64,000 nucleotides of DNA, taken from the NCBI GenBank assembly GCA_963825035.1, contig CAWGRT010000008.1, positions 183,775-247,774 on the forward strand. The letters are read 5' to 3'. A model generated the notes under the pieces. That model saw nothing but the letters and a program-made list of their open reading frames with translations, searched no databases and was not told the origin of the DNA. Positions 1-64,000 of the stretch are shown here, in pieces. Position 1 is the first letter of the stretch. Each line of letters opens with the position of its first letter. The stretch comes from Candidatus Krumholzibacteriia bacterium. Lineage in GTDB: Bacteria; Krumholzibacteriota; Krumholzibacteriia; LZORAL124-64-63. Position numbers and translations under genes: made by a program.

Positions 1-43
1 CGGACGGCGCAGGCGGCCGCCACCAGGCTCTTCTCGCGTTCGG

Positions 44-1233
44 TCACGGGGTGTCTCCCTTGGTCAGCGCGGGCAGGAAGCTCGCGCCCTTGCGGGGCGG
101 CCGGCAGCCGAAGAAGTCGGCCACCGTGGCGCCCAGGTCCATGAACCCCTCGCGCACGCCCAGGGGCACGCCGGGCTCGCGGCCCACCAGACGCGCCAGC
201 AGGGGCACCTGCTCCCGCGAGTGGTCGGTGCTGGGCGTGGTGGGGTCGTTGCCGTGGTCGGCGGTGATCAGCAGCAGCTCGCCCGCCGGCTGCCGGTCCA
301 GGAAGCCGCCCAGCCAGACGTCGAAGGCCTCCAGGCCGCCCTTCATCCCCTCGGGGTCGTTGCGGTGGCCCCACAGCATGTCGAAGTCCACGAGGTTCAG
401 CAGGATCAGCTCGGGCCCGTCGGCCGGCTGCGCGCACAGCTCGTCCAGCTTGGCCATGCCCTCGCCGTTGTTGTGCGAGGCGAAGGTCTCGTCGATGCCC
501 ACGCCCGCGTACAGGTCGTAGATCTTGCCGATGGAACGCACCTTGACCCCGGCCTCCTGGAGCACCGGCAGGATCAGCCCCGCCGGCGGCGGCACGGAGT
601 AGTCGTGGCGGTAGGGGGTGCGCTCGTAGGCGCCGCTGGGCCCGGTGAAGGGCCGGGCGATGACGCGGCTCACCCCGTGGGGCGGCACCAGCATCTCCCG
701 CGCCTTCTCGCACACCCGGTACAGCTCCGCCAGGGGGCAGACCGCATCGTGGGCGGCGATCTGGAAGACGCTGTCGGCCGAGGTGTAGACGATGAGCTTG
801 CGCGTGGCGATGTGCTCGTCCCCCAGCTCGGCGATGATGGCGGTGCCGCTGGCGGCCTTGTTGCCGAGAACGCCCCAGCCGGTGCGGCGGGTGAACTCGT
901 CGATCACCGCGGCCGGGAAGCCGTCGGGGTAGGTGGGGAAGGGCTCGGCGGTGACCAGGCCCATCAGCTCCCAGTGGCCGGTGGTGGAGTCCTTGCCCGC
1001 GGAGACCTCCTGCAGGCGACCCCACGCGGCCAGGGGCGCGTCGGCGGGGTCCGCTCCCGGCAGGGGATGGATGTTGCCCAGGCCGAGGGAGGCCAGGTGG
1101 GGGACGTGCAGGCCGCCCACCGCGGCGGCCAGGTTGCCCAGGGTGTCGCTGCCGGCGTCGCCGTAGCGGTCCGCGTCGGGAGCCCCGCCCACGCCGACGC
1201 CGTCGAGCACGATGAGGATGGCGCGTGCCATGA
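44..1233 (-). CDS. deoB: Phosphopentomutase. Reads intact (~396 aa) from [11 protein letters not shown] to the stop at 44.
   Basis: The translation carries the alkaline-phosphatase-like phosphopentomutase signature ([32 protein letters not shown]). Start ATG at 1231-1233. Confidence 0.85.
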
Positions 1234-1365
1234 TGTCTCTCCTTGTCCTCCGCGCGCCGGGGTCCACCGGGCGCAACGGAATCCTCCAAGGGTAGTTGCG
1301 CCCCCCTGCCCCCGTCAACACAGCTTCCGCTTGCCTGGCGTCGGGCGCGGCTTACAATAGCGCCC

Positions 1366-2770
1366 ATGAGCGGAGACCTCTTCAACCCCGAGAACCCCGA
1401 GCCGGAGCGCGAGCCCGCGCCCGGCGCGGCCGACGCGCCCGCGTCCGCCGCGCCTTTGGCCGACCGCATGCGCCCGCGCAGCCTGGACGAGGTGGTGGGC
1501 CAGGACGAGTTGCTGGGACCGCGGGGGCCCCTGCGCCTGCTGCTGGAGGCGGACAGCCTGCCCTCGCTGCTGCTGTGGGGCCCGCCCGGTTGCGGCAAGA
1601 CGACCCTGGCGCGCCTGGCGGCCAGGCACACCCGCGCGCGGTTCCTCGAGTACAGCGCCGTGGCGGTGGGCTCCAAGGAGTTGAAGGGCGTCATGGCCGA
1701 AGCCGCCAAGCTGAAGCGCGCCGTCGGCACCCGCACCATCCTCTTCCTGGACGAGATCCATCGCTTCAACAAGGCCCAGCAGGACGCCCTGCTGCCCTGG
1801 GTGGAGCGGGGCGACGTGACCCTGATCGGGGCCACCACCGAGAACCCCAGCTTCGAGGTGAACAGCGCGCTGCATCTCGCGCACGCGGCTGTTCGTGCTC
1901 AAGGCCCTGGACCCGGCGGCGGTGCGCGTCCTGCTGGAGCGCGCCCTGGCCGGGGAGCGCGGACTGGCCGGCGCCCTGGACCTGACCGGCGACGCCCTGG
2001 ACGCCCTGGCCGTGGCCAGCGAGGGCGACGCCCGCGCGGCCCTGGGGCAGCTCGAGACCCTCGCCGCGGCGATGGCGGCGGGCGCGGTGCCCGAGGCGGC
2101 CGACGGCCCCCTGGACACGGACGCGGTGGCCCGGGTGCTGGCCAGCCGCGCGGTGCGCTTCGACAAGGCCGGCGAGGAGCACTTCAACCTCATCAGCGCC
2201 CTGCACAAGAGCCTGCGCAACAGCGACGTGCAGGCCGCGGTGTACTGGCTGGTGCGCATGCTCGAAGGCGGCGAGGACCCCCTCTACCTGGCGCGGCGCC
2301 TGGTGCGGTTCGCCAGCGAGGACATCGGCCTGGCCGAGCCCCAGGCCCTGGTCCAGGCCCTGGCCGCCCGGGATGCGGTCCACTTCATCGGCATGCCCGA
2401 GGGTCGGCTGGCCCTGCTGCAGGCGACGGTGTACCTGGCCCTCTCGCCCAAGAGCAACGCCCTGTACCGGGCGGGCGCCCAGGCCGAGGCCGAGGTGCGG
2501 CGCGGCGCCAGCCCGCCGGTGCCCATGCACCTGCGCAACGCCCCCACGCGCCTGATGAAGGACCTGGGCATGGGCGACGGCTACGTCTACGCCCCGGACA
2601 CCCGCGAGGGCATCGCGCGCATGGACTGCCTGCCCCCCGGCCTGGCGGGCCGGCAGTTCTACGACCCGCGCGGCCGCGGTTTCGAACGGGAGCTGAAGGA
2701 CCGCCTCGACAAGCTCCGCAACTGGCACGCCCGGCGGGGAGACCCCTCCGCCGGGGACGGGAACGAGTGA
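1366..2770 (+). CDS. rarA: Replication-associated recombination protein A (AAA+ ATPase RarA/MgsA). Carries a single-base frameshift near 1873.
   Basis: N-terminal half is in frame 1 ([43 protein letters not shown]). C-terminal half is in frame 2 ([12 protein letters not shown] to the end, ORF 1895..2770). Around 1870-1876, ctgcatctcgcg would read as the canonical ctgctctcgcg (NSALLSRTR) without the extra 'a'. Confidence 0.85.
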
Positions 2771-3862: not shown

Positions 3863-4768
3863 CTACTCGTTCCGCGCTGCCCTTCGACGTAGGTGTTGGC
3901 GTACTGGAACCAGTTCACCCGCATCGTGCCCACCACGTGGCCCAGACCTCGTACTCCATCTTGCGCGCGGTGTAGTCTTCGTCAGGGACAGCACCGTGAA
4001 CGCGCCGATCAGGGGCAGGTCCTTGGCCTTGAGCAGCTCCAGCATCCACTCGGCGCCGGGGGTCAGGTCCGACCATGCTGCAGGGAGCACTCGTCGCCCA
4101 CCGCGTACCAGGCGTAGTCCTCGGGGCCCGGGTTCGCCTTGGCGCTGTCGGGCAGGTCGATCCGCGGCACGTAGACGAAGTTCGCGAAGGCGCTCTTGAT
4201 CGTCTTGACGGGATCGCCCTCGTTCTCGGGCAGGAAGGTGGCGCTTGGCCTCGTCGATGTCCTTGCGGTTCCAGCCGATCTCCGGCAGCGGCGCGCCCGG
4301 CATCTCGTTGTCGATGGCGCCCGAGCGCAGCAGCGCCGGCAGCACGTAGTCCTTGGGCGTGGGCAGGCTGTCGGCGACCACCACGCCGTTCTGCTTGATG
4401 CGGCGCAGCACCAGGTGCGTGGGCTGGGGCGTGAAGGTCTTCTGGACGCCCAGCAGGGTCGCCGCGTCGAGGCTCCGGTAGCGGTTCTCCAGGTCGTCGC
4501 CCACCAGGAATTCGAGGAGGTTCTTGTCGTTGCCGCGGCCGCGGATGATGGCGACGTTGCCCTGCACGTAGTCGAACTCCGGCGCGTCGATCTCGAACAG
4601 GAAGTTGGTGCTCAGGGTGTCGCCGCAGATGACCCGGCGCAGGGAGTCGTAGACGTAGGGGTCCACCTCTTTCTTGCCGCCGCAGCCGGTCAGGCCGACC
4701 AGGGTCACGGCCAGCAGGCCGAGCAGGATGACGGGAACCCAGCGACGCAGGGTAGACACACCGAACAT
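3863..4768 (-). CDS. Lipoprotein of unknown function. Has a signal peptide with lipobox LTGC and at least 3-4 single-base frameshifts (~4243, ~4068, ~3990, ~3945).
   Basis: N-terminus [31 protein letters not shown]. Protein-like segments continue in shifted frames: [45 protein letters not shown], then [31 protein letters not shown], then [15 protein letters not shown]. Confidence 0.55.
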
Positions 4769-4986
4769 GAACGAACCTCCCAATTGGTACATGCCCTCGC
4801 CCCGCCGGTGGGATGCAGGGCGGCGATCGACGGAACACCGGGCCGGACCGGGTGATCCTAGGCCCGGCGCCAGGCAAGGTCAACGAATGACTCGCCGTCT
4901 CAACCCCATGAAATTGGGGCATAGCTCGGCATAAAAAGCAAATGCATTCGCGCCGGCGGCGGCGCGCTGTCCGGGCGGACCGGCGT

Positions 4987-5690
4987 TCACAGCCGGGGCA
5001 GGTGGCGCACGGCGGCCAGCACGGCGCGCGGCGCCTTCGATCCCGCCCTCCCAGAGGGACTGGAAGATCTGCCAGTGGCCCGGCATCAGGACGCCCGCCG
5101 AGGAGAACAGGCGCGAGAACCGCGCCCGGCGCCGGCCCTGGCGGATAGCCGGGCAGGCCCGCCCGCTGCAGGCGGCCGTCCACGCACCACGTCCCAGGCC
5201 GCGGCGAAGGCCTCGGCCAGGGCCGCGGGGATCAGGTTCCGGCACCACCCGTCCGTCGAGGAGGTCGCCGGCCAGGGCGAGCTGGTGGTGGAGGAACGCG
5301 TTGGTCTCGGCCGGCGAGAAGCGCGCGTCGACGAAGGGCTCCTCGTCCCGGGGCGCGGCGACCTGCTCCCAGACCGCGCGGCCCGGCTCGACCGCGCCCG
5401 CGGCCCGGATCGCAGAAGGCGGCCGGCGCGCAGTAGAGGGTCAGCACCGGGGCCGACCGCGCCGGGACCGCCCGGGTCCAGGCGCAGCCAGCCGTCGTCG
5501 CCGTCGGGCAGGTCGTCGCAGCAGACGACCACCGCCGACAGGGCATCCCTCAGCTCCAGGTGGCGCAGGGCCGCCAGGGCCCGGGGCGCCACCAGTTCGG
5601 CCAGCTCGGGCGCGCAGGCCAGGCAGCGCACCTCCGGTCCGGGGTTGCCGTCGCGGTCGTCCACGGGATCAGGCCCCGACCACCATGGCC
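4987..5690 (-). CDS. Hypothetical protein, possibly nucleotidyltransferase-like or DUF2064-like. Frameshifted; the start is uncertain and overlaps the end of the lyase gene.
   Basis: Protein-like segments across three frames: CLACAPELAELVAPRALAALRHLELRDALSAVVVCCDDLPDGDDGWLRLDPGG; AVWEQVAAPRDEEPFVDARFSPAETNAFLHHQLALAGDLLDGRVVP; MPGHWQIFQSLWEGGIEGAA..AVLAAVRHLPRL, then the stop at 4987. Confidence 0.35.
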
Positions 5691-5699
5691 GCCGCCCGT

Positions 5700-7073
5700 G
5701 ACCGGCTTCAGGCGCACGGTGAAGTGCCGCAGCTGCGGCGGCTGCCAGACGATCTCCAGGCCGCGCAGGCGTTCGGCCATGCGCCACCACGTCGGCGCAG
5801 CACTCGGCCACGTAGTCCAGCTGGGTGTGGGTGTAGACCCGCCGCGGCACCGCCAGGCGCACCAGCTCGTTGGCCGGGTGCACCAGCTCCCCCGTGTCGG
5901 GATCCTTGTGCTCGAACATCAGGCTGCCGATCTCCACCGCCCGCACGCCGCCCTCCAGGTACAGGGCCGCGGTGAAGACCTGGGCCGGGAACTGGGACGG
6001 CGGGATGTGGGGCAGCGCCGCCTTGGCGTCGAGGTAGACGGCGTGGCCGCCGGTGGGGTGCAGGTAGGGCACCCCCAGCTCGTCCAGGCGTCGGCCGAGG
6101 CGCGCCACCTGGCCGATGCGGTAGTCCAGGTAGTCCTGGTCCAGCACTTCGTGCAGCCCCTGGGCGATGGCCGCCAGGTCGCGCCCCGCCAGGCCGCCGT
6201 AGGTGGGGAAGCCCTCCCGCAGGATCAGCAGGTTCGTGACGTTCTGGGCCCACTCGTCGTCGTCCAGGCAGACGAAGCCGCCGATGTTGGCCAGCCCGTC
6301 CTTCTTGGCGCTCATGGTGCAGCCGTCGCCGTGGGAGAACATCTCCTGGGCGATGGACTTGATGCTGCGGTCGCGCGTACCCGGCCTCGCGCTGCTGGAT
6401 GAACCAGGCGTTCTCGGCGAAACGGCAGGCGTCGAAGATCAGGCGCTTGCCCCGGGCGTGCGCGAACTCGGACACGGCCTTGATGTTGCCCATGGACACC
6501 GGCTGGCCGCCGCCGCTGTTGTTGGTGATCGTCAGCATCACGAAGGGGATGCGGTCGGCGCCGTACTTCTCGAACGCGGCGGCGAGCTTGCCCAGGTCCA
6601 TGTCGCCCTTGAACGGCGCGTCCAGGCGCGGGTCCAGGCCCTCGGCGCCGATGCAGTCCAGTGCGATGGCGCCCCGGAACTCGACGTTGGCGCGGGTGGT
6701 GTCGAAGTGGATGTTGTTGGGCACCACGTCGCCCTCGTTCGACCACGGCCGTGAAGAGCAGCCCCTCGGCGGCGCGGCCCTGGTGGGCGGGGATGACGTG
6801 CTTGTAGCCGAAGAGTTCGCGGATGGTGTCGCGGAACCCCAGGAACGAGGTGCTGCAGGCGTAGGCCTCGTCGCCGGTCATCAGCGCGCCCCACTGCAGG
6901 TCGCTCATGGCGCTGGTGCCGCTGTCGGTCAGCAGGTCCACGTAGATGGCCGCGGACGGGATCTTGAAGATGTTGTAGCCCGCCTCTTCCAGCAGGCGGG
7001 CGCGCTCCTCGCGGCTGACCCGGCGGATCCTCTCGACGACCTTGATCCGGTAGGGCTCGAACGGCAGTTCCAT
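5700..7073 (-). CDS. tpl: Tyrosine phenol-lyase / tryptophanase family beta-eliminating lyase. Has at least 3 frameshifts (~6745, ~6370, ~5700).
   Basis: MELPFEPYRIKVVE..AHQGRAAEGLLFTAVV, then VVPNNIHFDTTRANVEFRG..FKGDMDLGKL..NNSGGGQPVSMGNIKAV..FDACRFAENAWFIQQREAGYA, then SIKSIAQEMFSHGDGCTMSAKKDGLANIGGF..FPTYGGLAGRD..EIGSLMF, then AERLRGLEIVWQPPQLRHFTVRLKPV. This matches Citrobacter TPL closely. Confidence 0.8.
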
Positions 7074-7203
7074 GGCAGGGCTCCTCGCGCGCTGCGGGTG
7101 GTGGGCCGGCCGCAGCGGGCCCCGGTCCGTGGCGTCCCCGCAAAACTAGCCCGCCGGGGTGCGGCGAACAAGGTCCGCGTGGGCGGCCGCGGCGGCGGTG
7201 GGT

Positions 7204-10124
7204 TCAGGCCTCGGCCAGGGGGGAACGGTCCTGATACAGGACCAGTGCCGCGTCGGTGAGGCGGGAGAGGATCCGGTAGTGCTGGCGCGGGTCCTCGCCC
7301 CCCAGGCACAGGTACACGCCGCCGGCCACGGGCACGCCGGGAGCCCGCGTCGCCGGGGCCAGGCGGACGAAGGGACGGTCGGGCGCCGGGTCGGGCAGGC
7401 CCAGGTCGCCGGCGAGGGTGGTCCACCACGCCTGCCACAGGGCATCGTCCGGCAGTTCGGCCAGGGTGCGCCCGCCCCACTCCGCCAGCAGGGCGTCCAG
7501 GCGACGTCGCGCCGCCGGCAGGACGAGCGCCGGCGCGGCGTCCGGCTGCCGCAGCAGCAGTGCGGCCAGGTCCGCCAGGGTCGTCCCGCGGGGATCGGGC
7601 AGCGGCGCCGGCGGCCAGGGCGCCCCGGCGGCACGGCCCGGGGCCAGGCGTGCCAGGATGCCGTCGGCCGCGGCCGGCGGCGGCCCGGCGGGCGCCGCGG
7701 CCGCGTCTTCCTTCGATTCGTCGGCGGCGGTCGATTCCCCCGCGGCGGCGCCGTCCCGGCGCCATGCGCCCGCGGCGGCCAGCACGTCGGCGGCGGCCGC
7801 CAACAGGTCGCAGGGACCCGGCAGGGCCAGCCGATCGAGGCTCTCCTCGTCCACCGCCAGCCAGCCGTGGTTCCGCAGGGCGGCCGCCAGGTAGTCCAGA
7901 TCCGAGGTCAGGGGCGCGATCACCCGCAGGCGCGTCGGCAGCAGACCGTCGCTGCGGGCGGTGAGGATGCGGGCCACGCCCTGGTCCAGGTTGGCCGCGT
8001 ACTCGGCCACGACCTCGCCCCGCTCGCGGCGTCGCGGACGATTGGGCCCGGCCAGGGGCTCGGGCACCAGGTTGCGCACCTGCTCCCAGAGGCGCCGTGC
8101 CTGGTCGCTGCTGCTCCTCCAGCGCCAGCACGTCGCTGGTGCGCGGCGTGGTCAGGAAGAGGTTTTCCCAGGACTCGACCCCGGCCGCCGGGTCCACGCT
8201 CATGAGCAGGCGCCGGCCCCGGCCGTGCTGGGCGATGCGGTAGCGCACCTCCGGTGCGAAGCGTTGGATCTCCAGCATCACCACCACGTCGTCCCGGCCC
8301 GGAGAACCGGTTCCGGCCGGCGGCGGCGCTGCGGCGGGTTCGGGCAGGTCGCCTTCGTCGGTCAGGCGCAGGTCCAGAGCCAGCCCCGCGCCAAGGGCGG
8401 CGCGCGCGGCCGCCGCAGCCGCGGCGACGTCGGGGCAGTACACGGTCACGTCGCCCGGGTCGTCGCCCCGCGCCGCGGCCCGGGCCAGCCCGGCCATCGT
8501 GCTCGCCAGGCGGCCCGATCCGGCCAGGCCCCGCAGCACCAGGAAGGCGGGCTCCGCCGTCTCGCCGCCGAGGCGGGCCGTCCGGTCGACGGCCTCCGCC
8601 GCCGCGGTGCCGCCGTGGTTCCCCTGCCCGAAGAGGGCGCGCAGGCCGCCGCCGCCGACGTCCCGGTCCGCGTCCGGGGGCGTCGGCCGGCCGCCGAGAG
8701 CGCCGGCCAGGGTCCAGGCCTCGTGCCGCGTCCGCACCGTCGCGCTGTCAGCGAGGGTCAGCAGGTCCACCAGCGGCAGGGTCTCGTCTCCTGCCGGGCC
8801 GAACCAGCGCCAGAAGCCCAGGGCCGTCCCGAGGTCCAGGAACGTCTGCTCGTCCGGACGCAGTTCGACCAGGCCCGTGTCCACGAGGAAACCGCCGCCG
8901 GTCTCCACCGCCGCGCCCATCACGTCCTTGATCCGGCGCCGGAACAGGTCCACGTCGGCCTGCAGCGCCGCCAGCACCTGATCCAGGGGCCGGGTCGGTC
9001 CCGCCAGCCGCCGGGTGGAGGCCAGGGTGCCGCGGGGCGCCGCATAGACCAGGCCCGCGGTGCCGACGCCGCCGCCCAGGAGCCAGGTGTCCGCATCCTG
9101 CAGGGCTCCCGCGTCGGCCCGGGCGGGCGGCTGGGCCAGGTCGATCCACGTGCGTCCGCCCGCCGGCGTGCGCCCCAGCCACAGGGGCAGGAAGAGTCCG
9201 AGGGTCTCCCCCAGGCGATCCAGCCGGCCTTCCAGTTCGGCAAAGCGGGCCGGGATGAGCAGGGCGTGGCTGCGGGCACGTCCGTCGCGGTCGCCTGGGG
9301 CGTCGTCACCCGCGGCGGAAAGGGGATCGCCGGCCAGGCGCGCCGCCCAGCGGAGCACCCGCACCGCAGCCACCACCTGGGACGCGGCCAGGCCCGCCTG
9401 GACCGCCAGCTGCGACGCCGACACCAGTTCCCCGTCCAGGTCGGGCGACGCGCGGTCGGGAGCCGCCGCCTCCCGCCGTTCCTCCAGCAGGGGCCGCAGC
9501 CGGCCCAGCAGCCGGCGCAGTCGGGCCACCAGCGTGGCCGCCCGCAGGGCGCCGGTTTCCCCGGCCTCGACTGCGGCCGGCGGACCGTTCACCGTGACGC
9601 CCGTGGCCTCCGCCAGGAAATCGCGCCAGGGACCGGGCAGATCCCGCGCCTGCAGCACGACGGCCGGCGCCTCCAGGCGCAGCACCGCCCGCAGGGCCGC
9701 AGCCCGCACCTGGGCACGTCCCGCGGCCGGCGGGCAGCCAGGCGGGCAGGTCCGGCACCAGCACCAGCCGGGGCCGGTGGCGCGCCGTGTAGGCGGCGAC
9801 GCTGCCGTCCAGCAGATCCTCCGGCCGGACCCAGAGCACGGGCGCCGGCGCCCGGGTCCGGGCGGGCCAGGTGGAGCAGCCGGCCGCCCCGCAGCGGGCG
9901 ACGAGTTCGGCCGCGGCAGCCCAGCCCCGGGGGGCGACCACCAGGATCCAGGCGTCGAGCCGGCCCCGCTCCCAGGCGGCCTCGGCGCCGGCGAGCAAGG
10001 CGTCAGCAGACAGGCCGGATGCGCCCACTTCCAGCCGGGCACCCGTCGCGGGCCAGGCCACCGTCGCCGCATCCGCCGGTTGGTGCTCGCCCCGGGCCGC
10101 CAGCCACGCCGCAACCTCCGCCAC
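7204..10124 (-). CDS. Large uncharacterised protein of ~970 aa, frameshifted. It contains a degenerate SF1-helicase-like C-terminal motif and a Walker-A-like GLAGSGR with K replaced by R.
   Basis: GTG start at 10124 (VAEVAAWLAARGEHQ). Long protein-like run FLVDTGLVELRPDEQTFLDLGTALGFWRWFGP...FLVLRGLAGSGRLAST...DDVVVMLEIQRFAPEV..RLLMSVDPAAGVESWENLFLTTPRTSDVLALEE. After a frame change it continues VVAEYAANLDQGVARILTARSDG...GVYLCLGGEDPRQHYRILSRLTDAALVLYQDRSPLAEA to the stop at 7204. K is almost absent. Confidence 0.5.
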
Positions 10125-52411: not shown

Positions 52412-52414
52412 GCC

Positions 52415-54206: not shown

Positions 54207-54857
54207 TCAGTTGAGGCGGAAGACGAACGGGACGGCCATCCACGCCTTCACCGGGATGTTGCGCTGCTTGCCCGGGAAGAAGGTCCAGCGGCGGGCGGCC
54301 TTCAGGGCCTCCCGGTCCAGCAGCGGGTGCACGCTCTGGATCACCTGGGCATCCTTGACCAGTCCGTCCGGCCCCACGAGCACCTTCACGATCACGGTGC
54401 CCTCCAGCTGCGAACGGCGCGCGATCTCCGGGTACTCGGCCTTGACCGGCACCTTCACCCGCGGGTTCTCCGACGAGGCCACGAAACCCTCGTCGCCCAG
54501 GGAATAGGTGGAGGTCGTCTGGCTGATGGCCGTGTCCAGGTCCATCAGGGTGTCGGCGATCTCCACGTCCTCGCTCACCTCGTCGTCCGGGGCGGCCTCG
54601 ATCACCTTGGGCGGCGGCGGGGCTTCCTGCGGCGGCGGCGGCAACTCGATGTCCTGGGTCTCGGGGATGTCGACGACCTCGAACTCCTCCTGCCGCAGCT
54701 TGTACGGGTGCGGCGTGTAGTTGGGCGAGAGGAGGAAGCCGAGCAGCGTCAGCAGGACGGCGATCAGCGCCGACCAGCGCAGGTACTTGTTGTACTTCGC
54801 CTTGAACTCTTCGTTCGCCGATAAAGGCAGTCCGTTGATCACCGGGACGGTCGCCAT
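54207..54857 (-). CDS. tonB: Energy transducer TonB. Reads intact.
   Basis: N-terminal TM segment; Pro-rich spacer PPPPQEAPPPPK; C-terminal TonB domain EGTVIVKVLVGPDGLVKDAQVIQSVHPLLDREALKAARRWTFFP. Confidence 0.82.
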   Translation of the reverse strand: MATVPVINGLPLSANEEFKAKYNKYLRWSALIAVLLTLLGFLLSPNYTPHPYKLRQEEFEVVDIPETQDIELPPPPQEAPPPPKVIEAAPDDEVSEDVEIADTLMDLDTAISQTTSTYSLGDEGFVASSENPRVKVPVKAEYPEIARRSQLEGTVIVKVLVGPDGLVKDAQVIQSVHPLLDREALKAARRWTFFPGKQRNIPVKAWMAVPFVFRLN

Positions 54858-54865
54858 GCCTGCTC

Positions 54866-55288
54866 CTAGAACTTGGCCCCGGGGTGGGACTCGATGTCGT
54901 TGTTGAAGAAGACGCGCACGGCGTTGACCTCCTTCAGCTCCTCCATCACGTCGCTCACCACCCCGTAATCGGTGTACGTGTCGGTCTTGAAGGCGACGAT
55001 CAATTGTGCGTTGTCGTTGATCTTCTGGCCGATGATGTCCCGCACGTTCCTCACCTTCACCAGCCGGTCGTCGATGGAGATCTGGCCGAGCCGGTTGATG
55101 TAGATGTTGGACACCAGCTCCCGGTTCACTTCCTCGCCGGCCTCCGCCCGCGGCAGCTCCACCGGCAGGCCCGTCTCCTCGCGGAAGATGGTCGTGACCA
55201 TGAAGAAGATCAGCAGCAGGAAGGCGATGTCGCCCATCGAAGAGGTCGGGATGAACGTTTCCTTCTTGGTGTTGCGATTGAAATCCAT
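54866..55288 (-). CDS. exbD: Biopolymer transport protein ExbD/TolR.
   Basis: MGDIAFLLLIFFMVTTIF...ISIDDRLV...AFKTDTYTDYGVVSDVMEELKEV. Confidence 0.82.
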   Translation of the reverse strand: MDFNRNTKKETFIPTSSMGDIAFLLLIFFMVTTIFREETGLPVELPRAEAGEEVNRELVSNIYINRLGQISIDDRLVKVRNVRDIIGQKINDNAQLIVAFKTDTYTDYGVVSDVMEELKEVNAVRVFFNNDIESHPGAKF

Positions 55289-55301
55289 CTCGTCCTCCTT
55301 C

Positions 55302-55721
55302 CTACCGTTCGGCGGTCTTCAGCGACACCTTGTTGGCGTTCGCCAGTCTCAGTTCGTCCAGGCACGCGACCATGCGGCCGTAGTCGGCGTCCGGGTGCAC
55401 CTTCAGCAGGACCACCAGCTTCGGGTTCGAGTCCAGCCGGTCCTCGATGGCGCGCTCGATGTGGTTGACCACGATCGGCTTGTTGTCCAGCGTGATCGAG
55501 TTGTCCGCGTGGACGAACAGCGTGGCGATGTTCTTCTCCGCCACCTTGACGACGTCGTCCAGTTCCTTCTGCTTGCCGGGCAGGACAAGGGTCAGGCCCT
55601 GCTCGGCCGCGAAGATCGTCGTGACGATGAAGAAGATCAGCAGGAGGAAGGCCACGTCGCTGGTGGAGGCCATGGGGATCTCCCCGAGCGCGCCCTTCTT
55701 CTTTTTCTTCATGAGGCCCAT
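55302..55721 (-). CDS. exbD: Biopolymer transport protein ExbD/TolR (second copy).
   Basis: TSDVAFLLLIFFIVTTIF..ITLDNKPIVVNHIERAI..LLKVHPDADYGRMVACLDELR. Confidence 0.82.
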   Translation of the reverse strand: MGLMKKKKKGALGEIPMASTSDVAFLLLIFFIVTTIFAAEQGLTLVLPGKQKELDDVVKVAEKNIATLFVHADNSITLDNKPIVVNHIERAIEDRLDSNPKLVVLLKVHPDADYGRMVACLDELRLANANKVSLKTAER

Positions 55722-55770
55722 CGATAGTCCATCCTCCCCGGCCCGGGGCCGGGACGTGCCAGGGTCGCGA

Positions 55771-56647
55771 CTAGCCCTTCAGGCGCTCCAGTTCCTCGAT
55801 CAGTTCCGCGCTGGTCTCCTCCATCTCGATGACGAAGCGGTCGATCGACGAGACGAAGTAGTTGTAGCCGATGGTCGCGGGAATGGCGACCACCAGGCCG
55901 GTGGCGGTGGTGATGAGGGCCTCGGAGATACCGCTGGCCACGAGCTTGGCGTTCACCTGCTCCGACGCGGCGATGGCCTCGAAGGCGTTGATCATACCCG
56001 ACACGGTGCCGAGGAAGCCGATCAGCGGGGCGATCGTGGTCACCGACGAGATCCAGATCAGGCCGCGCTCCAGGAAGGACATCTCGATGGTGCCCGCGGT
56101 GGCGATGGCCTTCTCCACGGCGTCGCGGCCCCTGTCCGCCTTCTGCAGGCCGGAGTAGAGGATGGCCGCGATCGGACCGCGCACCTTCTGGCATTCCTCG
56201 GCGGCCGCCTGGACACCGTCGTTGCGCAGCGTGGTGATCACCGTGCCGATCAGGCGCCGGGTGTTGACGCGCGCGCGGTTGAGGGTCCACAGGCGTTCGA
56301 TGAGGAAGACGAAGCCCGACCAGGGCCACGATCAGCAGCCACCACATGAACTGCCCGCCCTTGACGAACAGCTCACCGGCGCCGGTCTTGCCGAGGGGGG
56401 AGCGGTCCACGTAGCCCATCAGGCCGCCGACGGGCTGGATGATCTGGGGCACTTCCCGGAGGGAGTCCGACGCGGTCGACCCGAAGCCCAGCGAGTCGCT
56501 CGTGGCCTGGATCTTGGCGAACTTGTCGGCCGCCGAGTCAGCGGCGGGCTGATCCTGCGCCAGCACCGGGGCCGCCAGGATCAGTCCCAGCAGCCCGAGG
56601 GTGATGAACCCGAAAATGGCGCTTTTCAACGTACCGTGACGAGCCAT
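55771..56647 (-). CDS. exbB: MotA/TolQ/ExbB proton-channel protein. One frameshift near 56300.
   Basis: ATG after GGGAGAC. N-terminal signal-like region; then the MotA_ExbB core ISSVTTIAPLIGFLGTVSGMINAFEAIAAS..GISEALITTATGLVVAIPATIGYNYF. Confidence 0.82.
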
Positions 56648-56911: not shown

Positions 56912-58549
56912 TCACTCCTCGCCCTGGACCACGTTGGACGATTCCAGGTAGAACTGGCCGGTGCCCGTCCGGTCCACGAACAGGAACCGCTGCCCCATGC
57001 CGATGTGGGAGAAACGGCTCGGCCACAGGGGCTTGCCCCCGTTGTCGTACTCCCACAGCTCGAAGCCGAACAGGTGCGACGCCTTCTGCAGGGTGATGTC
57101 CCGCTGGTACTCCGCCCGCTGCGACGCGGCTGCCAGTCGGGCCGGTCGGCCCCGTTCGACGGCGCGGTGCTCACCCGGCCCTGGATTCTGCCGCGCTCCG
57201 CGTACACCTCGCGCTCGGGAGCGAAGCGGTTGAAGACGTTGATGCGGGCGTCGTCCTGGGCCCTGTAGTCGTTGGGCATGTGGGACCGCTTGATGTCGTC
57301 GGGCCTGCCCAGGGCCAGGAACACTTCGCCGCGGGGATCGGCGGCGCCGAACTCGTCGAAGCCCCCCAGGAACTGGCGGACGTAGGCCAGCCGGTACTGG
57401 AACTCCAGGTAGGCCTCGTTGATCGGGACTCTCCGGGTCCGGGTTGACGCTGGCCCAGTAGGCCTTGAGCATGTTCTCCTGTTCGGCCGCGCTCGACGCC
57501 AGGAAGCGCGTCCAGCTGCTTGCCGTGGAAGATGGTGCGCCCCTCCCCCCGCACCTGGGCGGGCCGCCGCGCCAGGGCGGCCAGGCGCCAGACCACGTCG
57601 AACTGCTGCACCGACCCCCGCCCCCGCCGGTCCAGGGGCGCCAGGCTCAGCAGGAACGACCCTTCGGGCAGGAGATTCACGTCCAGCTCGTAGAAGATGC
57701 CCGCCGGACGGCCGGCCGCCAGGGCGGCCCGGCCCACCTCGTCGAACTGGATGGTGTCGGTCACCGCGAAGTCCAGGTCGAGGCTGGACACCTTCACCTG
57801 CAGGCCCGACCGAATCGGCTTCCAGCGGCGATGCCGCCGACGGCGGGCCACACCGGCACGAAGATCTGCAGATGGTCCTGCTCCAGGCCGTAGCGACGGG
57901 ACGGGTGCATGTAGTCGTGCAGCCATGCCGGTGCCCCGGGCGTCCACGTTCTCGGGCCGCCAGCGCTGCAGGGGCGCCTGGGCCAGGTACAAGGGGTCGC
58001 CCACGGCCAGGCCGCGCGCCGGCCGCGGCCCGTCGTCCGCCGCCCAGGCGCCGGCGGCGGCGCTGACCTCGTTGTTCTTCCGGATGATGTTGAGCAGCCC
58101 CTCCTTGCGCTGGTTGAGGTCGTAGACCTCGCAGCGGATGCGACCGCTGCGGAACGGCACGTCCTCCAGGACCACGCCGAAGTTCTGGAAGAGGGTCGGG
58201 CTGGCGGCGTCGTTCGCGCTCAGCACCGGGGTCTTCACGGGCCGGCGTTCGGTGATCGACGTGGCCGTACGGATCCTCCAGCTCCACATCGACCCGCAGG
58301 CGTCCCTGCAGACCGCCCCCGGCTTCCGATGAAAGCCAGGTCGGCGTTGGCCACCTCCACCAGGACCAGCACGTCCAGGGTGCCTCGTCGCGCCAGCGGT
58401 TGACCACGTCGACGCCGCGGTGAAGTTCCCCCGCCCGTCCAGGGGACGCACGATGGCGGACCGAAGTCGCCGGCAACGGCGAGCGACACGGCGATGGCGG
58501 GCAGAGGATGCGCGCGCACTGCGGGAAAACGGCAGGAGATCCGTGCCAT
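56912..58549 (-). CDS. Secreted GWxTD-domain-like protein of unknown function. At least 4 frameshifts.
   Basis: Signal peptide MARISCRFPAVRAHPLPAIAVSLAVAG. Protein-like blocks LFQNFGVVLEDVPFRSGRIRCEVYDLNQRKEGLLNIIRK; INEAYLEFQYRLAYVRQFLGGFDEFGAADPRGEVFLALGRPDDIKR (resembles the GWxTDRG..YI..G.PD.I core); C-terminus FGFELWEYDNGGKPLWPSRFSHIGMGQRFLFVDRTGTGQFYLESSNV. Confidence 0.5.
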
Positions 58550-58734: not shown

Positions 58735-59668
58735 TAGTAGACGACCGACACGGTGAAGCGGTGGACGTAGCCGAGGGCGTCCATGTCCACGGCGCTGTAG
58801 TCCGCCTGCAGCTTCGTGCTGGCGCCGGTCTTGATCGCCGCACCGAAACCGAAGGCCAGGCCGTCGGTGTCGTAGTTGATGTGGTAGCCGGCGCGGGCGA
58901 AGAACATCTCGTTCAGCGCCCACTCGAAGCCGGCGTTGGCGCGCTCGAGGTTGTCCGCCGGGTGCTGGAACTCGAGGGCGCAGCGTCAGCCGCTGGCGCT
59001 CGTTGCGCATGGCGTTGAAGCTGGTGCCCACCTTGAAGATCACCGGCAGCTTGGACTCGCGCTCGTCGAACGTGAACTTGCCGCCCAGGTTCTGGATGGT
59101 CATGCCCAGCTTCAGGTCCTTGATGCCGATCCGGTACATGATGCCGAAGTCCATGGCGCCCGTGTTCACGGCGACCTCGGCCAGCCCCATGTGCAGGTAG
59201 TTCAGGGTGATGCCCGCCGAGAACTTGTCGGTGAAGAACCGGGCGTAGCTCAGGCCGAACGTCGTCGTGCCCGAGTCGAAGGTCTCGCCGGTCCCCTCGG
59301 GGTTGTACGCGGTGCGCACCAGCTGCGGGTCCATCCAGAAGGACCGGACCGAAACCGCGAAGGTGCCCGGGATCGAACGCGGGTTGAAGGCCAGGATCGC
59401 GGTGCTCAGCTTGGTGTCCGCCGCCCACACCACGTGGTTGATGGAGACCTCGTTGCTGACCACGTTGACCAGGCCGCCCGCGATTCCAGAACACGGAGCT
59501 GGCATCGTCGGCCACGCCCGTGAACGCGGAGCCCATGCCCGTCGCGCGCGCGCTCACGCCGATCTTCAGTTCCTGACCCCCGAAGGTGCCGACCTTGGCG
59601 AAGCCGGCCCCGAAGGCCAGCCCCGGCAGGGCCAGGAGGATCGTGGTCAGAATCGCGATGCGTTTCAT
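58735..59668 (-). CDS. PorV/PorQ-like outer-membrane beta-barrel protein associated with type IX secretion (UPF0164-like). About 2 frameshifts.
   Basis: ATG after GGAGG. MKRIAILTTILLALPGLAFGAGFAKVGTFGGQELKIGVSARATGMGSAFTGVADDASSVFWN (the hallmark GxxARAxGMGxAFxAVADDASAxxWNP). Later strands ...DFGIMYRIGIKDLKLGMTIQNLGGKFTFDE..., ending VVY. Confidence 0.65.
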
Positions 59669-59730: not shown

Positions 59731-62616
59731 CTACCTGACCACCACGAACTTGCCGACGAAGTCTGCTGAAGCGGTCTGTCGTCCGACTGCACGGAATAGA
59801 GGTAGACTCCACTGACGATTTCCTGGCCGTTCCGGCTCATCAGGTTCCAGCTGACGTGCCCGGAACCCGGTCGTCCCGTCGTGCTCGATCGTCTGCACCA
59901 GGTCCCCCGCCACCGTGTAGATCTTGACGGTGTTGTGGGCCATGGGCAGGTTGGTGAACGTCACCCTGACGCCGGTGGGGTCGTCGCCGTTGGGGAACAG
60001 CTGCTGGTACTCCGCCAGCGCATCGCGGGTGGCGGGATTCGGATAGACGTAGATGTTCGTCCCGTCGGCGGCCCGCTGCTCGGCCGGTCTGCGCCTCGGT
60101 GCCCGGCTGGGTGTTGCCGAAGGACGATCCGGGGTCGCCCACCAGCCCCGGCCCGGCCGGGCCGGTGATCCCCCACTGGTTGCCCGCAGGCAGCAGCTCG
60201 TGGTCGGTCGACGTCACCGAGTAGAAGTAGATGAAGCCGTTGTGGATGTCGCGGTCCACGTACTCGTAGTACCGGGTGGCCCGCTTCTCCTCCACCTCGT
60301 TGGCCGGATCCGGCGCGCGGTAGGTCACGGCCCAGAAGGTGTCCAGGGCCGCGTCCTCGGTCTGCCAGTCCGCCAGCGCCACGTACTGCGTCCTTGAGCT
60401 GGCCGTCCTGGTTGAACATCGGCGGCCGCACCTGGCTGGTGTTGTGGGGCTCGGAGTCCACCACCTGCTGCATCGCCTCGGCCAGGCCCGCGTACTGGGG
60501 ATCGCTGAGGATCCGCGGCGTGTAGCGGATGCTCTCGAGGCCCGTGTTGGCGCCCAGGGGGATGGTGTCGTAGCACCGTGCCGCTGGGCACGTCGCGATG
60601 GGTGATGTAGTTGTTGATCAGGTCGTACTCGTCGATCAGCTGCCACAGGCCGCTCTCCGGGCCGTTGGCCAGGGACGAGCCGTAGGGGCGCTCCCAGTTG
60701 TCCGCGCGCCAGATGCGGTACGACTCGAAGTCGATCTTCTGCAGCCGGATGTCCTTGGCGTACTCGGGCGAGTCGTCCCAGAACACGTGGACCCGGCTGT
60801 CGGCCGACCACAGGCGCAGACCCGGCGGCGGCGGCGCCATGCCCACCAGCCAGTGGATCTGCGTATCCAGGCCGCCGACGCCCGTGCAGCCGATCTTGTT
60901 GCCGTTGGGCAGGTTGCACTGCCAGGTGCCGTCTTTCGAAATCCGCGGGGCCGCAGTACCGGCCCAGCTGGCGCGCACACTCGAAGCAGTTGTCCATGTT
61001 GAACATGGCGCAGGTCTTGCCGTCGTACTCGAAGCGGTCGTCCTCCGTCACGCGCTGCTGGCCCAGCAGCCACTGGGGGTCGACGCACGTGGTGTCCATG
61101 AAGTCCGGGGAACCAGGTGTCGAAGGGGTTGTCCTTGCCCGGCGACTCGAAGTCCTCGCGGCAGAGCAGGGTCTCGCGGCCGTTGATGCCCGGGTTGAAC
61201 TCGAGTCCGGACTCCGCCTGGACCGGTGCCGACGTCCTGCACCCAGACGCCGTACCAGGTCAGCGCGGCCTCGGCGCAGTTGGCCAGCAGGCCGGGGGTG
61301 CCGTCGGCCGTGCCCAGCCCCGGCCCCACGACCATGCCCACCTGGAAGCGCAGGCTCTCGTCCGGCGGAGGCTCACGAACGGGCCCGCCGAGACCAGGAA
61401 GCGGAAGTCCGCCTGCTTGCCCGGCGGGGTGTTGGCGTCCCAGTCCTCCGGCGCCGCGCTCAGCAGCTGGTAGCGCTCGTCGTCGTTGGTGGGGTCGCCG
61501 CCCTGCTCGAAGGCCGCGTTGCCCGAGAACGACTGGAACGTGCGCAGACCCACGTGCGGCGGGCGCCGTGCGTGCCGGTGGGGTCGATGTTGTGGCCCAG
61601 GAAGAGGATGCCGAAGTAGCCGTCGATGCGGCCGCTCTCGGCGGCGTCGTACATGTAGCCGACCTCGACCGGCACGAAGCTGCCGTCGGAGGCCGCGCAC
61701 CAGGCCGCGCCAGCTGCCGGCCATGTCGTCGTCGGCGATGCCGTCGGCCGCGCGGGGCCCGATGTCGCTGTCGGCGAAGAAGCCCAGGTAGACCCGCTCG
61801 ATGTCGGTGACGCCGACGTTCTTGATGGCGTACTCGAAGCCCACGAAGTCGTCGACCTGGTCGTTCTCCCACTGGTAGGTGCTCTGGACGATCTCCAGGT
61901 TCAGCGGCGTGTGGTCCGGGTTGTCCTCCTGGGCCAGCCGCGTGTTGTCGTACTGGGTCAGCACCATCATCTGGTTGCCGATCTGCCCGAAGTCCTCGTC
62001 GATCAGGCCGTCGTCGTCGTCGTCCTTGCCGTTGAGGGTCTCCTCGTCGATGCGCGGCGAGCCGTCGTCGTTGAAGTCGCCGTCGTCGTTGGGACTGGGC
62101 ATCGGGCGCCCGGCGGCCGCTGGCGTCGACGTTCCCCGGCGGCCGCATCAGCTTGGTGCCGATGGCCTCGTAGATGGTGGCCTCGACCTCGTCCAGGGGA
62201 TAGATCTCGCTGCTAGAAGCCGCCGGCCGGTGGACACCAGCCGCTCGCCCAGCACGACGCCGCCCACCCACAGGCCGGCGGCCCACAGGTACTCGTTGCC
62301 GGAGCCGGCGGGCCACTGGCAGGAGGGCGCGTCCGAGAAGGGCGTCGCCGATCGACGGCGCCGACCCGATCAGGCCCCAGTTGGTGATGTTGATCTGGAC
62401 CTCGCCCACGTTCATCACGTAGCTGCCGTCCAGGATGAAGGCGCCGCTGGGATTGTAGCCCATGTCGAGGACCGGATTGGGTCCGTGCATCACCGCCGCG
62501 GCCGGCGCGGCGAGGCTGGCCGTCAGCAGGAGCAGGCCCACAGCAGCGCCGCCCCGCGAGGGCGCCACCGCCGCTGCCTGGCCGCGTTGATACTCGATGG
62601 TCCTGTTCATCGCCAT
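59731..62616 (-). CDS. Large secreted type IX secretion cargo protein (~960 aa) with an Asp-rich Ca-binding-like region and a Por/T9SS C-terminal sorting domain. At least 6 frameshifts; function unknown.
   Basis: Signal peptide MAMNRTIEYQRGQAAAVAPSRGGAAVGLLLLTASLAAPAAA. D-rich block SPNDDGDFNDDGSPRIDEETLNGKDDDDDGLIDEDFGQ. Sorting domain YPNPA..VRVTFTNLPMAHNTVKIYTVAGDLVQTIEHDG..WNLMSRNGQEIVSGVYLYSVQSDD..GKFVVVR to the stop at 59731. Confidence 0.6.
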
Positions 62617-62663
62617 CCTTTCGGGCCGGACCCGGTCGCAGGGACCCGGCGCGCTTCGCCCCT

Positions 62664-64000
62664 CTAGAAGTAGTAGCCGAGCCCGATCCGGAACAGCCGG
62701 TGCTGGCCGAACGTCCGCGGATCGTAGAACGGGATGAATTCGTCGACGCCGTCGCCGTTGGCGTCCTGCAGCAGGGCCGCGCCGTACTTGCCCGTCTCCG
62801 TGAGGTAGGACATGCCCGGCGTAGCGCGCCCCGTTGATCATGCCCGGGCTGATGCCGCCGCCGCCCGGGTTGTTGGATGACGTCCTGGTTCAGCAGGTTG
62901 AAGCCCTGCAGCTGCAGGGACAGCCGCTTGCCGTAGAAGTTGATGTTGCGCTCGAACTGGATGTCCAGGGAGTAGGTCGCCGGCAGGCGCTCGCTGTTCT
63001 CCAGCATGGGGTCCTGCCGCTTGGCGAAACGGTCCACCGGCGTCCAGGGGAAGCCGCTGCCGTAGGAGAAGGTGAACGACGTGCGACCACACGCCCGGGC
63101 TCGGCCAGGCGCAGCAGCAGGTTCGCCGTGTGGCGCTGGTCCCAGGCCAGCGGCAGCTCCTGGTTCGGCAGGTAGGCCAGGCCCTCGGGGTTCGACCCGA
63201 AGGCCGTGTCCGAGGCCACGCCGTCGGCGAAGGAGTAGGTGTAGCTGAACATGAACTGGTAGTTGTCGCTGTAGCGCTTCTCCAGGGTCATCTCGATGCC
63301 GCGCGCCGAGGCGTAGGCCTTGTTGATGTAGCGCGCCAGCGTCTGGCCCGTCGGACGTGTCCGTCACCTGGGTGGACGCGATCAGGTCGTAGATGTCCTT
63401 GCTGTAGAGCGAGAACTGGCCGGCGATGTAGTCGGTGAACTGGTGCTTGATGCCGGCCGAGTACTGCACCGTGGTCATCGGCTGCAGGTTCGGGTTGCCC
63501 AGGATGCCCGCGTTGCCGACGGGATCCTGGCTGGCGAACAGGTACTCGCGGCTCGGGGAACTGCACGAAGCGGCCGTAGTGGAAGTGGAAGCCGTCGCGC
63601 TCGGTGATGGGGAAGGCGAAGCCGAGGCGCGGCTGGAACGCGGTCTTGTACTTCACCACGTTGGCGTCCACGTCCTCGTTGGCCAGGTCGATGGCCGCCG
63701 CGCTGCCCGGGGAGAACATGTCCCAGCGCAGGCCGTAGTTCACCACCATGCCCTCGTACTCCCAGCGGTCCTGGGCGTACCAGTAGCCCTCGGGGTTGTA
63801 GGTGTGGAAGACGTTGCGGTTCTGGCCCTGGGTCCACTCGCCGGTGAAGCGGCTCTGGCGCATGATGGCCGGCTGGATCAGGCGCGTAGCGCTCGAGGTC
63901 GTTGTAGCGCACGCCGAAGCCGGTCTCCACCAGGTGCCCGTCCCAGCGGTTGCTCACCAGCTCGAAGCCCAGGCTGTAGGTCCGGCTGTACTCCTCCTGG
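62664..64000 (-). CDS. TonB-dependent receptor, C-terminal portion only. The gene continues beyond the window edge. Frameshifted.
   Basis: Beta-barrel segments PRLGFAFPITERDGFHFHYGRFVQFP; QFSLYSKDIYDLIASTQV; MTLEKRYSDNYQFMFSYTYSFADG; TFSYGSGFPWTPV; LSLQLQGFNLLNQDV; terminal ...YYF to the stop at 62664. Confidence 0.7.

Follow-up and report, generated by a model that had tools for sequence, protein, structure and literature searches.

Gene-fragmenting indels are a known defect of long-read assemblies, in which they are assessed by IDEEL-type tests and corrected with tools such as Kastor or ARAMIS (PMC12007338, PMC9262707). In published ONT and PacBio assemblies, errors are biased toward deletions and linked to homopolymers, at which more than 70% of them lie (PMC12007338, PMC8574707, PMC9262707); where GC content is high, it is specifically G/C that is deleted (PMC12007338, PMC8574707). 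Polishing can also introduce errors: a Medaka model added hundreds to a Flye assembly, and these did not follow the homopolymer pattern of raw reads (PMC12392509).

The stretch of DNA analyzed here (the window, 64,000 nucleotides) resembles assemblies with long-read indel errors: its conserved genes are split by single-base indels on a very long metagenomic contig, the lesions are absent from relatives' assemblies, and correcting frames against references repairs them completely (PMC12007338, PMC9262707). It departs from the published long-read spectra in that 85% of its events are insertions, which lie off homopolymers and are patchy and dense (~250 per 100 kb). Pure insertions without accompanying mismatches, in a sequence that is otherwise accurate as regards substitutions, would fit errors introduced by a polisher, which offers a lead on the assumption that one was applied to this contig, although no insertion-dominated spectrum was described in the Medaka/Flye case (PMC12392509). 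The large share of frameshifted genes also recalls the reductive decay of Mycobacterium leprae and Sodalis. Unlike those genomes, the window has essential genes hit, lacks nonsense codons, multi-base deletions and insertion-sequence elements, is insertion-biased and retains codon-level constraint. Judged from sequence comparison, it is very probably an ordinary, functional chromosomal segment that carries spurious single-base sequencing or assembly errors and not mutations.

The window comprises housekeeping operons and a TonB/T9SS outer-membrane cluster from an uncultured Krumholzibacteria-class bacterium of about 72% GC. The best matches of Ffh, TolC, RodA and RplS come from genomes named Krumholzibacteria or Krumholzibacteriia, and protein matches and synteny together place the window in Krumholzibacteriota. 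Its gene order is common to GCA_050174015.1, GCA_046484505.1 and GCA_046766235.1. In the related contigs L001, L002, L087, L088, L089 and L091-L093 the order is likewise the same and each gene is a single ORF of normal length. Once frames are corrected, the window's proteins are 80-98% identical to those of relatives (RodA 96%, MreB 98%). A scan of genome contigs with RodA returned only distant relatives, the best at 67% identity.

Because the window is 67-79% GC, with all six frames open, frames were called from codon usage and homology and not from ORF length; for the same reason of GC content, a plain ORF listing was uninformative (293 ORFs of at least 80 amino acids over all six frames). 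Gapped tblastn blurs frames, and a frameshift-aware dynamic-programming aligner was used in its place, with intact proteins of syntenic relatives as references. This aligner recovered 35 of 35 simulated insertions and 35 of 35 simulated deletions. Across the whole window, it identified 144 one-base frameshifts in 56,764 nt of aligned coding DNA (1 per 394 nt), which break 36 of 53 genes overall and 28 of the 39 longer than 600 nt. The preliminary description had proposed that most genes above ~600 bp are broken by single-base indels, as we find, but its density of one per 600-800 bp was too low, the actual value being ~1 per 400 nt. Every event is exactly 1 nt, the smallest spacing is 10 nt, and there are no frameshifting indels of 2 nt or more.

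Frameshifts were also called by two approaches that make no use of homology or references. A codon-usage Viterbi path contained ~121 same-strand frame switches in the window; such a switch lies within 45 nt of 105 of the 144 events, and its direction is the same in 84 of 91 testable cases. The doubly supported events alone give a density of at least 1 per 540 nt. The other ~39 events have homology support only and are less certain; they fall where conservation is poor (the giant protein, hyp220, ComF, the OMP and the GWxTD N-terminus). A reference-free detector flagged 107 candidate frameshifts in the window, or 12-23 per 10 kb of coding DNA, and none in seven clean contigs of relatives (~109 kb).

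We then assigned sites gene by gene; the affected genes lie on the minus strand unless a plus strand is given. rarA (1321..2737, plus strand) is a single ORF in L091 and L093, whereas the window switches frame at 1873 owing to one extra base. This base had been described as an "a" near 1873; the position holds, and the base may be G, C or A at 1872-1874. The lipoprotein gene (3880..4817) has five events, not the four reported earlier: extra bases at 4802 and 4243 and missing bases at 4076, 3984 and 3946, the same with references L091, L093 and L098. A hypothetical 220-amino-acid gene (hyp220, 4990..5640) has about six extra bases, with lower confidence as reference identity is only 51%. The tpl/tnaA-like beta-eliminating lyase gene (5688..7076) has extra bases at 6737, 6373 and 5775 with two references, and by tblastn occupies three frames in the window versus one ORF in relatives. 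A conserved hypothetical gene of ~2,000 codons (7207..13215) is one ORF of 2011-2042 amino acids in L091, L092 and L093 and is spread over several frames in the window by ~8-9 extra bases; the sites common to both references are 8104, 9704-9728, 10185-10215 and 10739-10788, the remainder being uncertain. Single extra bases occur in the gene for an S8 peptidase with a T9SS-type C-terminus (13274..16820; at 14723) and in yraN (UPF0102; 17169..17511; at 17391).

The central housekeeping genes are similarly affected. Two extra bases each were found in rimM (19395..19924; 19693 and 19503), rpsP (20234..20802; 20523 and 20504) and rpe (23629..24296; 24263 and 23803). ffh (20887..22222) has extra bases at 21997 and 21520 and a missing base at 21758, sites that are identical with four references; as deposited it measures 1336 nt (3x445+1), and its corrected product covers 445/445 amino acids of P0001 with 411/445 residues (92%) identical and no amino-acid gaps. 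A PASTA-domain gene (24283..25009) has extra bases at 24592 and 24379 and a missing base at 24536, rsmB (25043..26411) has one extra base (25487), and yajC (27893..28197) has one missing base (28133). The 1175 nt of tgt (28328..29502) align to 390 amino acids without amino-acid gaps, the excess over 1170 being five extra bases (29448, 28571, 28534, 28413 and 28370). queA (29534..30689) has six events (extra bases at 30560, 30544, 30270, 30162 and 29792, and a missing base at 30220), and ruvB (31320..32329) lacks one base at 32256. In ruvA (32376..32968), extra bases at 32734, 32562 and 32412 and a missing base at 32512 were identified, the pair 32562/32512 with low confidence. yebC (33564..34317) has extra bases at 34197 and 33582 and a missing base at 33733. 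An EF-G-like GTPase gene (34332..36408) has a single extra base (35556), and the frame of its N-terminal part stays open for 1113 codons, to 33070, crossing yebC and ruvC.

Farther along, an outer-membrane protein (OMP) gene (36819..37707, plus strand) has about six events, called with lower confidence because of low reference identity, and secG (38496..38896) has extra bases at 38722 and 38637. pgk (39027..40230) has seven events rather than the four first reported, with missing bases at 39926, 39740 and 39307 and extra bases at 39850, 39448, 39384 and 39063; the Viterbi path shows six junctions. A comF-like phosphoribosyltransferase gene (40287..41044) has about seven events, again with lower confidence. 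The one extra base of lgt (41967..42729; at 42618-42621) is supported by three references and by DNA alignment to L087. The gene for PBP2 (mrdA, 44025..45778) has 11 extra and no missing bases (45436, 45222, 45176, 45094, 45072, 45062, 44983, 44961, 44927, 44833 and 44502): its 1754 nt equal 3x581+11, and 581/581 amino acids of the L087 protein are covered at 90% identity without amino-acid gaps. Every inserted base is visible in the DNA alignment of this region to L087 (92.4% identity). Extra bases also occur in mreD (45808..46300; 46231) and, with two references each, in mreC (46318..47148; 46926, 46490 and 46435), radC (48227..48912; 48780 and 48710), the aspartokinase gene lysC (49122..50398, plus strand; 49518, 49717, 49949, 49986 and 50110) and a Rhomboid/TPR gene (50343..51603; 51444, 51098, 50554 and 50481).

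At the end of the window, exbB/tolQ (55774..56647) has one extra base (56317), and a conserved hypothetical (GWxTD-like) gene of 541 codons (56915..58549) has about 11 events, those near the N-terminus (58260-58467) being less certain. The PorV-like outer-membrane protein gene (58737..59668) has extra bases at 59482 and 58983, and its corrected product is identical at 279/310 residues, gap-free. A T9SS-cargo-type gene of 970 codons (59734..62610) has about 15 events, where the earlier count was "6+", and 12 Viterbi junctions. The 3' part of a TonB-dependent receptor gene, which continues beyond the window (62667..64000), has six extra bases (63557, 63352, 63099, 63083, 62875 and 62823); corrected, it is gap-free and identical at 333/373 residues. 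Alignment to relatives showed that all genes named in the preliminary description do carry frameshifts; its counts for tpl (3), rimM (2) and ffh (3+) agree with those found here, and the involvement of essential or highly conserved genes (ffh, pgk, rpsP, ruvAB) was borne out.

If the indels were real mutations, the window would represent massive genome decay. They are truly in the deposited sequence, and 36 of 53 genes are broken; beyond this, the data speak against genuine pseudogenization, which we regard as very unlikely. The genes hit include the indispensable ffh, rpsP, secG, pgk, PBP2, lgt and ruvAB, and one-base corrections restore full-length conserved proteins even in those that are essential and single-copy (Ffh, PBP2, Tgt, Pgk, RpsP and SecG among others), at 80-96% identity to intact homologues; the 80-98% identity of corrected proteins to relatives, given above, likewise speaks against decay. 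The 56.8 kb of frame-corrected coding DNA contains no premature in-frame stops, versus 144 frameshifts, and the events are 1 nt only: neither longer deletions nor insertion-sequence elements occur. Genuine decay in bacteria favors deletions and is prone to slippage at homopolymers. Here, 122 events are insertions and 22 are deletions (~85%/15%, or ~5.5:1; p=5e-18), the reverse of that bias. Divergence from the 92.4%-identical relative is still mostly at third positions downstream of the "frameshifts": across the 11 in PBP2, mismatches to L087 number 34/23/85 at codon positions 1/2/3. Finally, the sites are unique to this contig, being absent from L087 and from other relatives' assemblies, and similar lesions lie elsewhere in one related contig (L006) and in none of several other assemblies of relatives. 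Comparison with a close relative had been suggested at the outset, and L087 has none of the 12 insertions within the span it covers. All tests possible without reads (essential genes, 1-nt events only, no stops, private sites) agree with the initial view of an artifact rather than pseudogenes.

The frame picks up again right after each site with conserved sequence, as first noticed, and past the shift sites frames remain open, the next stop being a median of 426 nt away. Both properties might be expected if the extra bases were real and were bypassed by programmed recoding (ribosomal +1/-1 frameshifting, transcriptional slippage or RNA editing), but the long open frames merely follow from the 72% GC content. 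An X XXY YYZ slippery heptamer within 9 nt was found at 0 of 144 sites, an upstream-frame stop within 6 nt also at 0 of 144, and the sites have no common motif. Relatives at 92% DNA identity do not share them, nor does L006, and the orthologues are single ORFs. We know of no bacterial system described as decoding over 100 sites of this kind, and consider recoding exceedingly improbable.

The spurious-error interpretation raises the question of what kind of error is involved. The preliminary description called the pattern typical of long-read or low-coverage assemblies; the insertion-dominated, patchy spectrum found here, off homopolymers, does not fit that label. Relative to sequence context the errors are placed almost randomly, and the inserted bases mirror genome composition. 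Insertions with any candidate placement adjoining an identical base make up 51%, compared to 55% in a simulation of random insertion and 89% in a simulation of homopolymer extension, and a homopolymer origin was therefore rejected; this also answers the earlier proposal to check whether events sit at homopolymers, which they do not. Homopolymer linkage with deletion bias, the classic signature of ONT, HiFi, 454 or Ion Torrent data, marks one subtype of indel artifact and is no requirement for an artifact in general. Unambiguous homopolymer placement was observed for 16%, versus 33% expected under random insertion. This mild shortage of homopolymer-adjacent insertions could, purely as speculation, point to a consensus built in run-length-compressed space. 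A cause in methylation or a sequence motif was likewise rejected, as no k-mer occurs at more than 27% of sites and no motif is enriched (the best, AGCG, reaches an uncorrected p=1e-4 among 103 tests). The insertions come without substitution errors, which is uncommon in a consensus that resembles raw reads.

The events are also clustered. Rich patches with up to 1 per 60-150 nt alternate with clean stretches of 2-5 kb, and the dispersion index is 2.2. The error-rich patches are at 3.9-7.1, 28.3-30.7, 36.8-41.0, 44.5-46.9, 48.7-51.4 and 56.3-64.0 kb, and the clean ones at 10.8-17.4, 25.5-28.1, 42.6-44.5 and 51.4-56.3 kb. Under a uniform rate, stretches of 4.9 and 3.9 kb free of events, as seen here, would be expected 0.002 and 0.02 times, respectively. 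The 4.9-kb patch (51444..56317) encodes an ABC ATPase, TolC, TonB, ExbD2 and ExbD1, all intact. Within it, the 1441 bp at positions 53782-55222 match an independently built Logan contig (ERR11594398_2316968, or L170, from run ERR11594398) at 100% identity. L170, the one independent sequence of the same organism that was found, came from an exact-protein match, which is possible only for intact genes, and is uninformative on the error-rich patches. Event density does not correlate with GC content (Spearman rho ~0, p=0.3-0.97).

Strong patchiness without a GC link, in a source metagenome with several related populations, might reflect a consensus into which several co-existing strains were merged, the error-rich patches being strain-variable regions. 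Strain mixtures, in contrast, give mainly substitutions and chimeric haplotypes and not pure 1-nt insertions, and mismatch density to L087 is not higher in insertion-rich bins. We therefore consider such a collapse unlikely; it is still an assembly artifact and differs from our main explanation in cause only.

The window faithfully reproduces one NCBI/ENA contig of 474,548 bp, on which its exact products are on record; this length is what a long-read assembly would be expected to give. Two frameshift-truncated products are present there, an N-terminal LysC of 204 amino acids (49122-49733) and a C-terminal Ffh of 199 amino acids, each a singleton cluster. The resemblance of the insertions to random, composition-matched ones might otherwise suggest copying or synthetic noise that corrupted the window after deposition, leaving the public record clean. 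This possibility is refuted by the exact sequences of these two products on record, is at odds with the similar signature of a public contig, and has a negligible probability.

That public contig, L006 (ENA ERZ25039603 contig_44668, 137 kb), is a relative with 37 insertions versus 3 deletions, at other positions. Its name follows the 'contig_N' pattern of Microflora Danica (MFD) MAG contigs, which is a hint at most, and neither ERZ25039603 nor ERR11594398 was found mentioned in any paper. The sites of L006 and those of the window show 3 near-coincidences versus roughly 4 expected by chance; a systematic, position-specific error was accordingly rejected.

Together, these results establish that the errors exist, sit in the public record, are absent from relatives and are not mutation-like. 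We infer that they are errors of consensus or polishing in a long-read assembly of low coverage; they would have arisen during the sequencing, consensus building or polishing of the 474,548-bp metagenomic contig, and the patches probably reflect read support or polishing success that varied from place to place. An under-documented mode of failure of long-read assembly or polishing on high-GC, low-coverage genomes (insertion-dominated, non-homopolymer and patchy) is much more likely than extra bases that are real and tolerated, or a collapsing lineage. Indeed, there is very little chance that the bases are decoded through site-unspecific RNA-level base removal or ribosomal bypass, or that the lineage died recently with insertion-only mutation.

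The errors themselves have no biological significance, as the genes are in reality ordinary and intact, and the annotation of the window is wrong unless frames are corrected. At 72% GC, wrong frames run on without a stop for hundreds of codons, so that gene callers will yield long chimeric products and not obvious fragments. The two frameshifted products, as singleton entries in a public protein collection, inflate counts of apparently novel families. Correction tools weighted toward homopolymers would probably overlook the majority of these errors, whose spectrum does not match the homopolymer/deletion model, and protein-guided frame correction or polishing with accurate reads is needed. L006 has the same defect, indicating that Krumholzibacteria genomes from such assemblies need a frame check before they are used in comparative or pseudogene analyses.

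At a GC content of 67–79%, the window holds long ORFs in abundance in every frame (293 of at least 80 amino acids), so ORF length is uninformative about which frame is coding. Frames were called with a third-position-GC frame plot and a seven-state codon-usage Viterbi model in which stop codons were forbidden, yielding ~51 same-strand coding blocks with ~121 same-strand frame switches inside them. Conceptual proteins from the joined Viterbi segments are free of stops and read as ordinary genes. In window order these encode DeoB, RarA, PfkA, a lipoprotein and a Tpl/TnaA-type lyase; a ~2,000-aa protein and an S8 peptidase; YraN, RnhB, RplS, TrmD, RimM, a KH protein, RpsP and Ffh; Rpe, a PASTA protein, RsmB, Fmt, Def, YajC, Tgt and QueA; RuvB, RuvA, RuvC, YebC and an EF-G-like GTPase; an outer-membrane protein, SecG, Pgk, ComF, AroE and Lgt; RodA, PBP2 (mrdA), MreD, MreC, MreB, RadC, LysC and a rhomboid protein; an ABC ATPase, TolC, TonB, two ExbD and ExbB; and finally a 541-aa protein, a PorV-like protein, a 970-aa type IX secretion-type cargo protein and a TonB-dependent receptor. 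Top database matches and common gene order place the organism in the Krumholzibacteria/-ia. The only RNA gene detected is an intact tRNA-Leu(GAG) (38384–38469, minus strand; 49.8 bits against Rfam RF00005), no further Rfam family reaching its gathering score in the window.

Three other loci deserve mention. The ~2,000-aa protein (7207–13215, minus strand) has no Pfam match on record; it has syntenic counterparts of ~47–50% identity in four contigs of relatives (L001, L091, L092 and L093), all with the S8 peptidase gene adjoining. A lysine/alanine-rich tandem-repeat ORF (37844–38149, minus strand; KKVAKKAAKKKVAKKAAKK...) resembles histone H1-like or DNA-binding proteins, and the corresponding 87-aa gene of a relative's contig (L088) gave no tblastn match in the window. 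Lastly, lysC (plus strand) and the rhomboid/TPR gene (minus strand) are convergent, their 3' ends overlapping by ~56 nt (50343–50398); because this overlap recurs in L088, L089 and L006 (~62–71 nt), it is a conserved arrangement, not an error.

To count frameshifts by homology, we used syntenic contigs of relatives, where every gene forms one normal-length ORF: L001 for the YebC-to-S8 region, L002 from the TonB-dependent receptor to the ABC ATPase, L088 and L089 from ABC/TolC to RuvA/Lgt, L087 (92.4% DNA identity to the window) for PBP2, RodA and Lgt, and L091–L093 and L098 for window positions 1–13.3 kb. A purpose-written protein-to-DNA aligner, which models an extra base as a one-base skip and a missing base as a two-base codon, recovered 35/35 insertions and 35/35 deletions in simulated errors, all with the correct type. 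Across 53 alignable genes it called 144 one-base frameshifts over 56,764 nt (one per 394 nt), a density ~1.5–2 times that of the preliminary description (one per 600–800 nt). Thirty-six of the 53 genes are broken, including 28 of the 39 longer than 600 nt, in agreement with the earlier statement that indels break most genes above ~600 bp; every gene then named does carry one or more events. The extra base in rarA, reported as an 'a' near 1873, is correctly sited; it is G, C or A at 1872–1874 and is not resolvable further.

For genes aligned with no amino-acid gaps, length alone confirms these calls. The 1336 nt of ffh (3×445+1) fit two insertions and one deletion, the 390 codons of tgt in 1175 nt fit five extra bases, and the 1754 nt of the PBP2 gene (3×581+11) fit eleven. 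After frame correction, Ffh aligns along its entire length (100%) with intact Ffh proteins of 445–449 aa, identities reaching 92%. The homology-independent Viterbi model switched frame within 45 nt of 105 of the 144 events, agreeing in direction in 84 of 91 testable cases, and its switches without a matching event fall at true gene boundaries; the ~39 events in weakly conserved stretches are supported by homology alone and are less secure. A reference-free detector found 107 candidates in the window (12–23 per 10 kb of coding DNA) and none in ~109 kb from seven clean relatives.

All testable evidence points to artefact rather than real mutation, as the preliminary description had argued. Frameshifts strike indispensable single-copy genes (ffh, rpsP, secG, pgk, mrdA and lgt), and the corrected frames contain no premature in-frame stop, against 144 frameshifts; two flagged stops proved to be natural gene ends. 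Every event is exactly one base in size, and extra bases outnumber missing ones 122:22 (p=5e-18), whereas genuine indels in bacteria are generally biased towards deletion. No site is shared with L087, which lacks all twelve insertions within its span; the sites are thus private to this contig, and another related contig, L006, bears its own set of such errors at different positions. Differences between the window's PBP2 gene and that of L087 fall 34/23/85 at codon positions 1/2/3 and mismatch density does not increase in insertion clusters, so the imprint of purifying selection is kept in the original frame across eleven PBP2 'frameshifts'. Programmed recoding is excluded: a search around the 144 sites turned up neither slippery heptamers (within 9 nt) nor stop codons (within 6 nt), and no motif common to them. 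We consider it very improbable that the indels are real; the pattern is not a biological feature.

The errors are, however, not the typical long-read kind first supposed. To look for homopolymers, as the preliminary description had proposed, for each insertion we enumerated every single-base removal that maximised the local protein score, and put simulations through the same procedure. Some optimal placement lay beside an identical base for 51% of insertions, compared with 55% for random composition-matched insertion and 89% for duplication of a neighbouring base; for all optimal placements the values were 16%, 33% and 55%. The A+T share of inserted bases was 0.23 (0.22 and 0.21 in the respective simulations; 0.32 with uniform base choice). 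When the DNA was aligned directly with L087, 11 of the 12 insertions were of a base unlike either neighbour, and 11 of 12 were of G or C. Missing bases, too, lie mostly outside runs. Published ONT assemblies show deletion-biased, homopolymer-linked errors (PMC12007338, PMC9262707), whereas the window has mostly random-looking insertions that are not homopolymer-linked; for high-GC genomes assembled from PacBio data at high coverage, the errors are specifically losses of G or C within homopolymers (PMC8574707). Polishers can introduce hundreds of new errors (PMC12392509), and may possibly be the source here.

The events are also patchy (index of dispersion per kb 2.2, p=4e-7; chi-square over genes, p=2e-9). 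Error-free stretches of 1.9–4.9 kb (51444–56317, 10788–14723, 25487–28133 and 42618–44502) are interspersed with patches where an error occurs every 60–250 nt, and PBP2 has ten insertions inside 600 nt. At a uniform rate, the expected number of stretches like the first two (4.9 and 3.9 kb) is 0.002 and 0.02, respectively. Coverage, polishing or strain mixture may underlie this alternation. Error density did not correlate with GC content in the window.

Exact look-ups placed the window's TonB, ExbD1, RplS and RodA on a single 474,548-bp NCBI/ENA contig, a length that, for an uncultured organism, suggests long reads. The same contig carries a 204-aa LysC N-terminus with an out-of-frame tail (49122–49733, plus strand) and a 199-aa Ffh C-terminal fragment (20887–21483, minus strand), each in a singleton 90% cluster. 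Since these truncated products are on record, the errors belong to the assembly as deposited, not to any later handling. A 1441-bp Logan contig (ERR11594398_2316968) is identical to 53782–55222 (1441/1441, no indels), and run ERR11594398 therefore contains the window's organism; this match lies in a clean patch and exact-protein look-ups find only intact genes, so it is uninformative about error-rich patches. A second affected contig, L006 (ENA ERZ25039603 contig_44668; 137,014 bp, 70% GC), comes from related Krumholzibacteria, its RodA being 87% identical to the window's. Positions 1–21095 show the same defect, with 37 frameshifts from an extra base and 3 from a missing one in ~19 kb, at sites independent of the window's (3 near-coincidences versus roughly 4 expected by chance). 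Its gene calls are fragmented or fused, with TolC split into 107 and 364 aa and ExbD joined to TonB (489 aa).

The window's indels matter in practice, not biologically. Because GC content is high, frameshifts produce long chimeric ORFs instead of short truncations: in the wrong frame the next stop lies a median of 426 nt away, and the start frame of ffh is open for 502–530 codons. With a single extra base at 35556, the start frame of the EF-G-like gene stays open for 1113 codons, through yebC into ruvC (33070–36408, minus strand). As wrong frames stay open, annotation will give chimeric proteins. Assembly errors are propagating as apparently unique proteins, and some such products are already in public protein collections.
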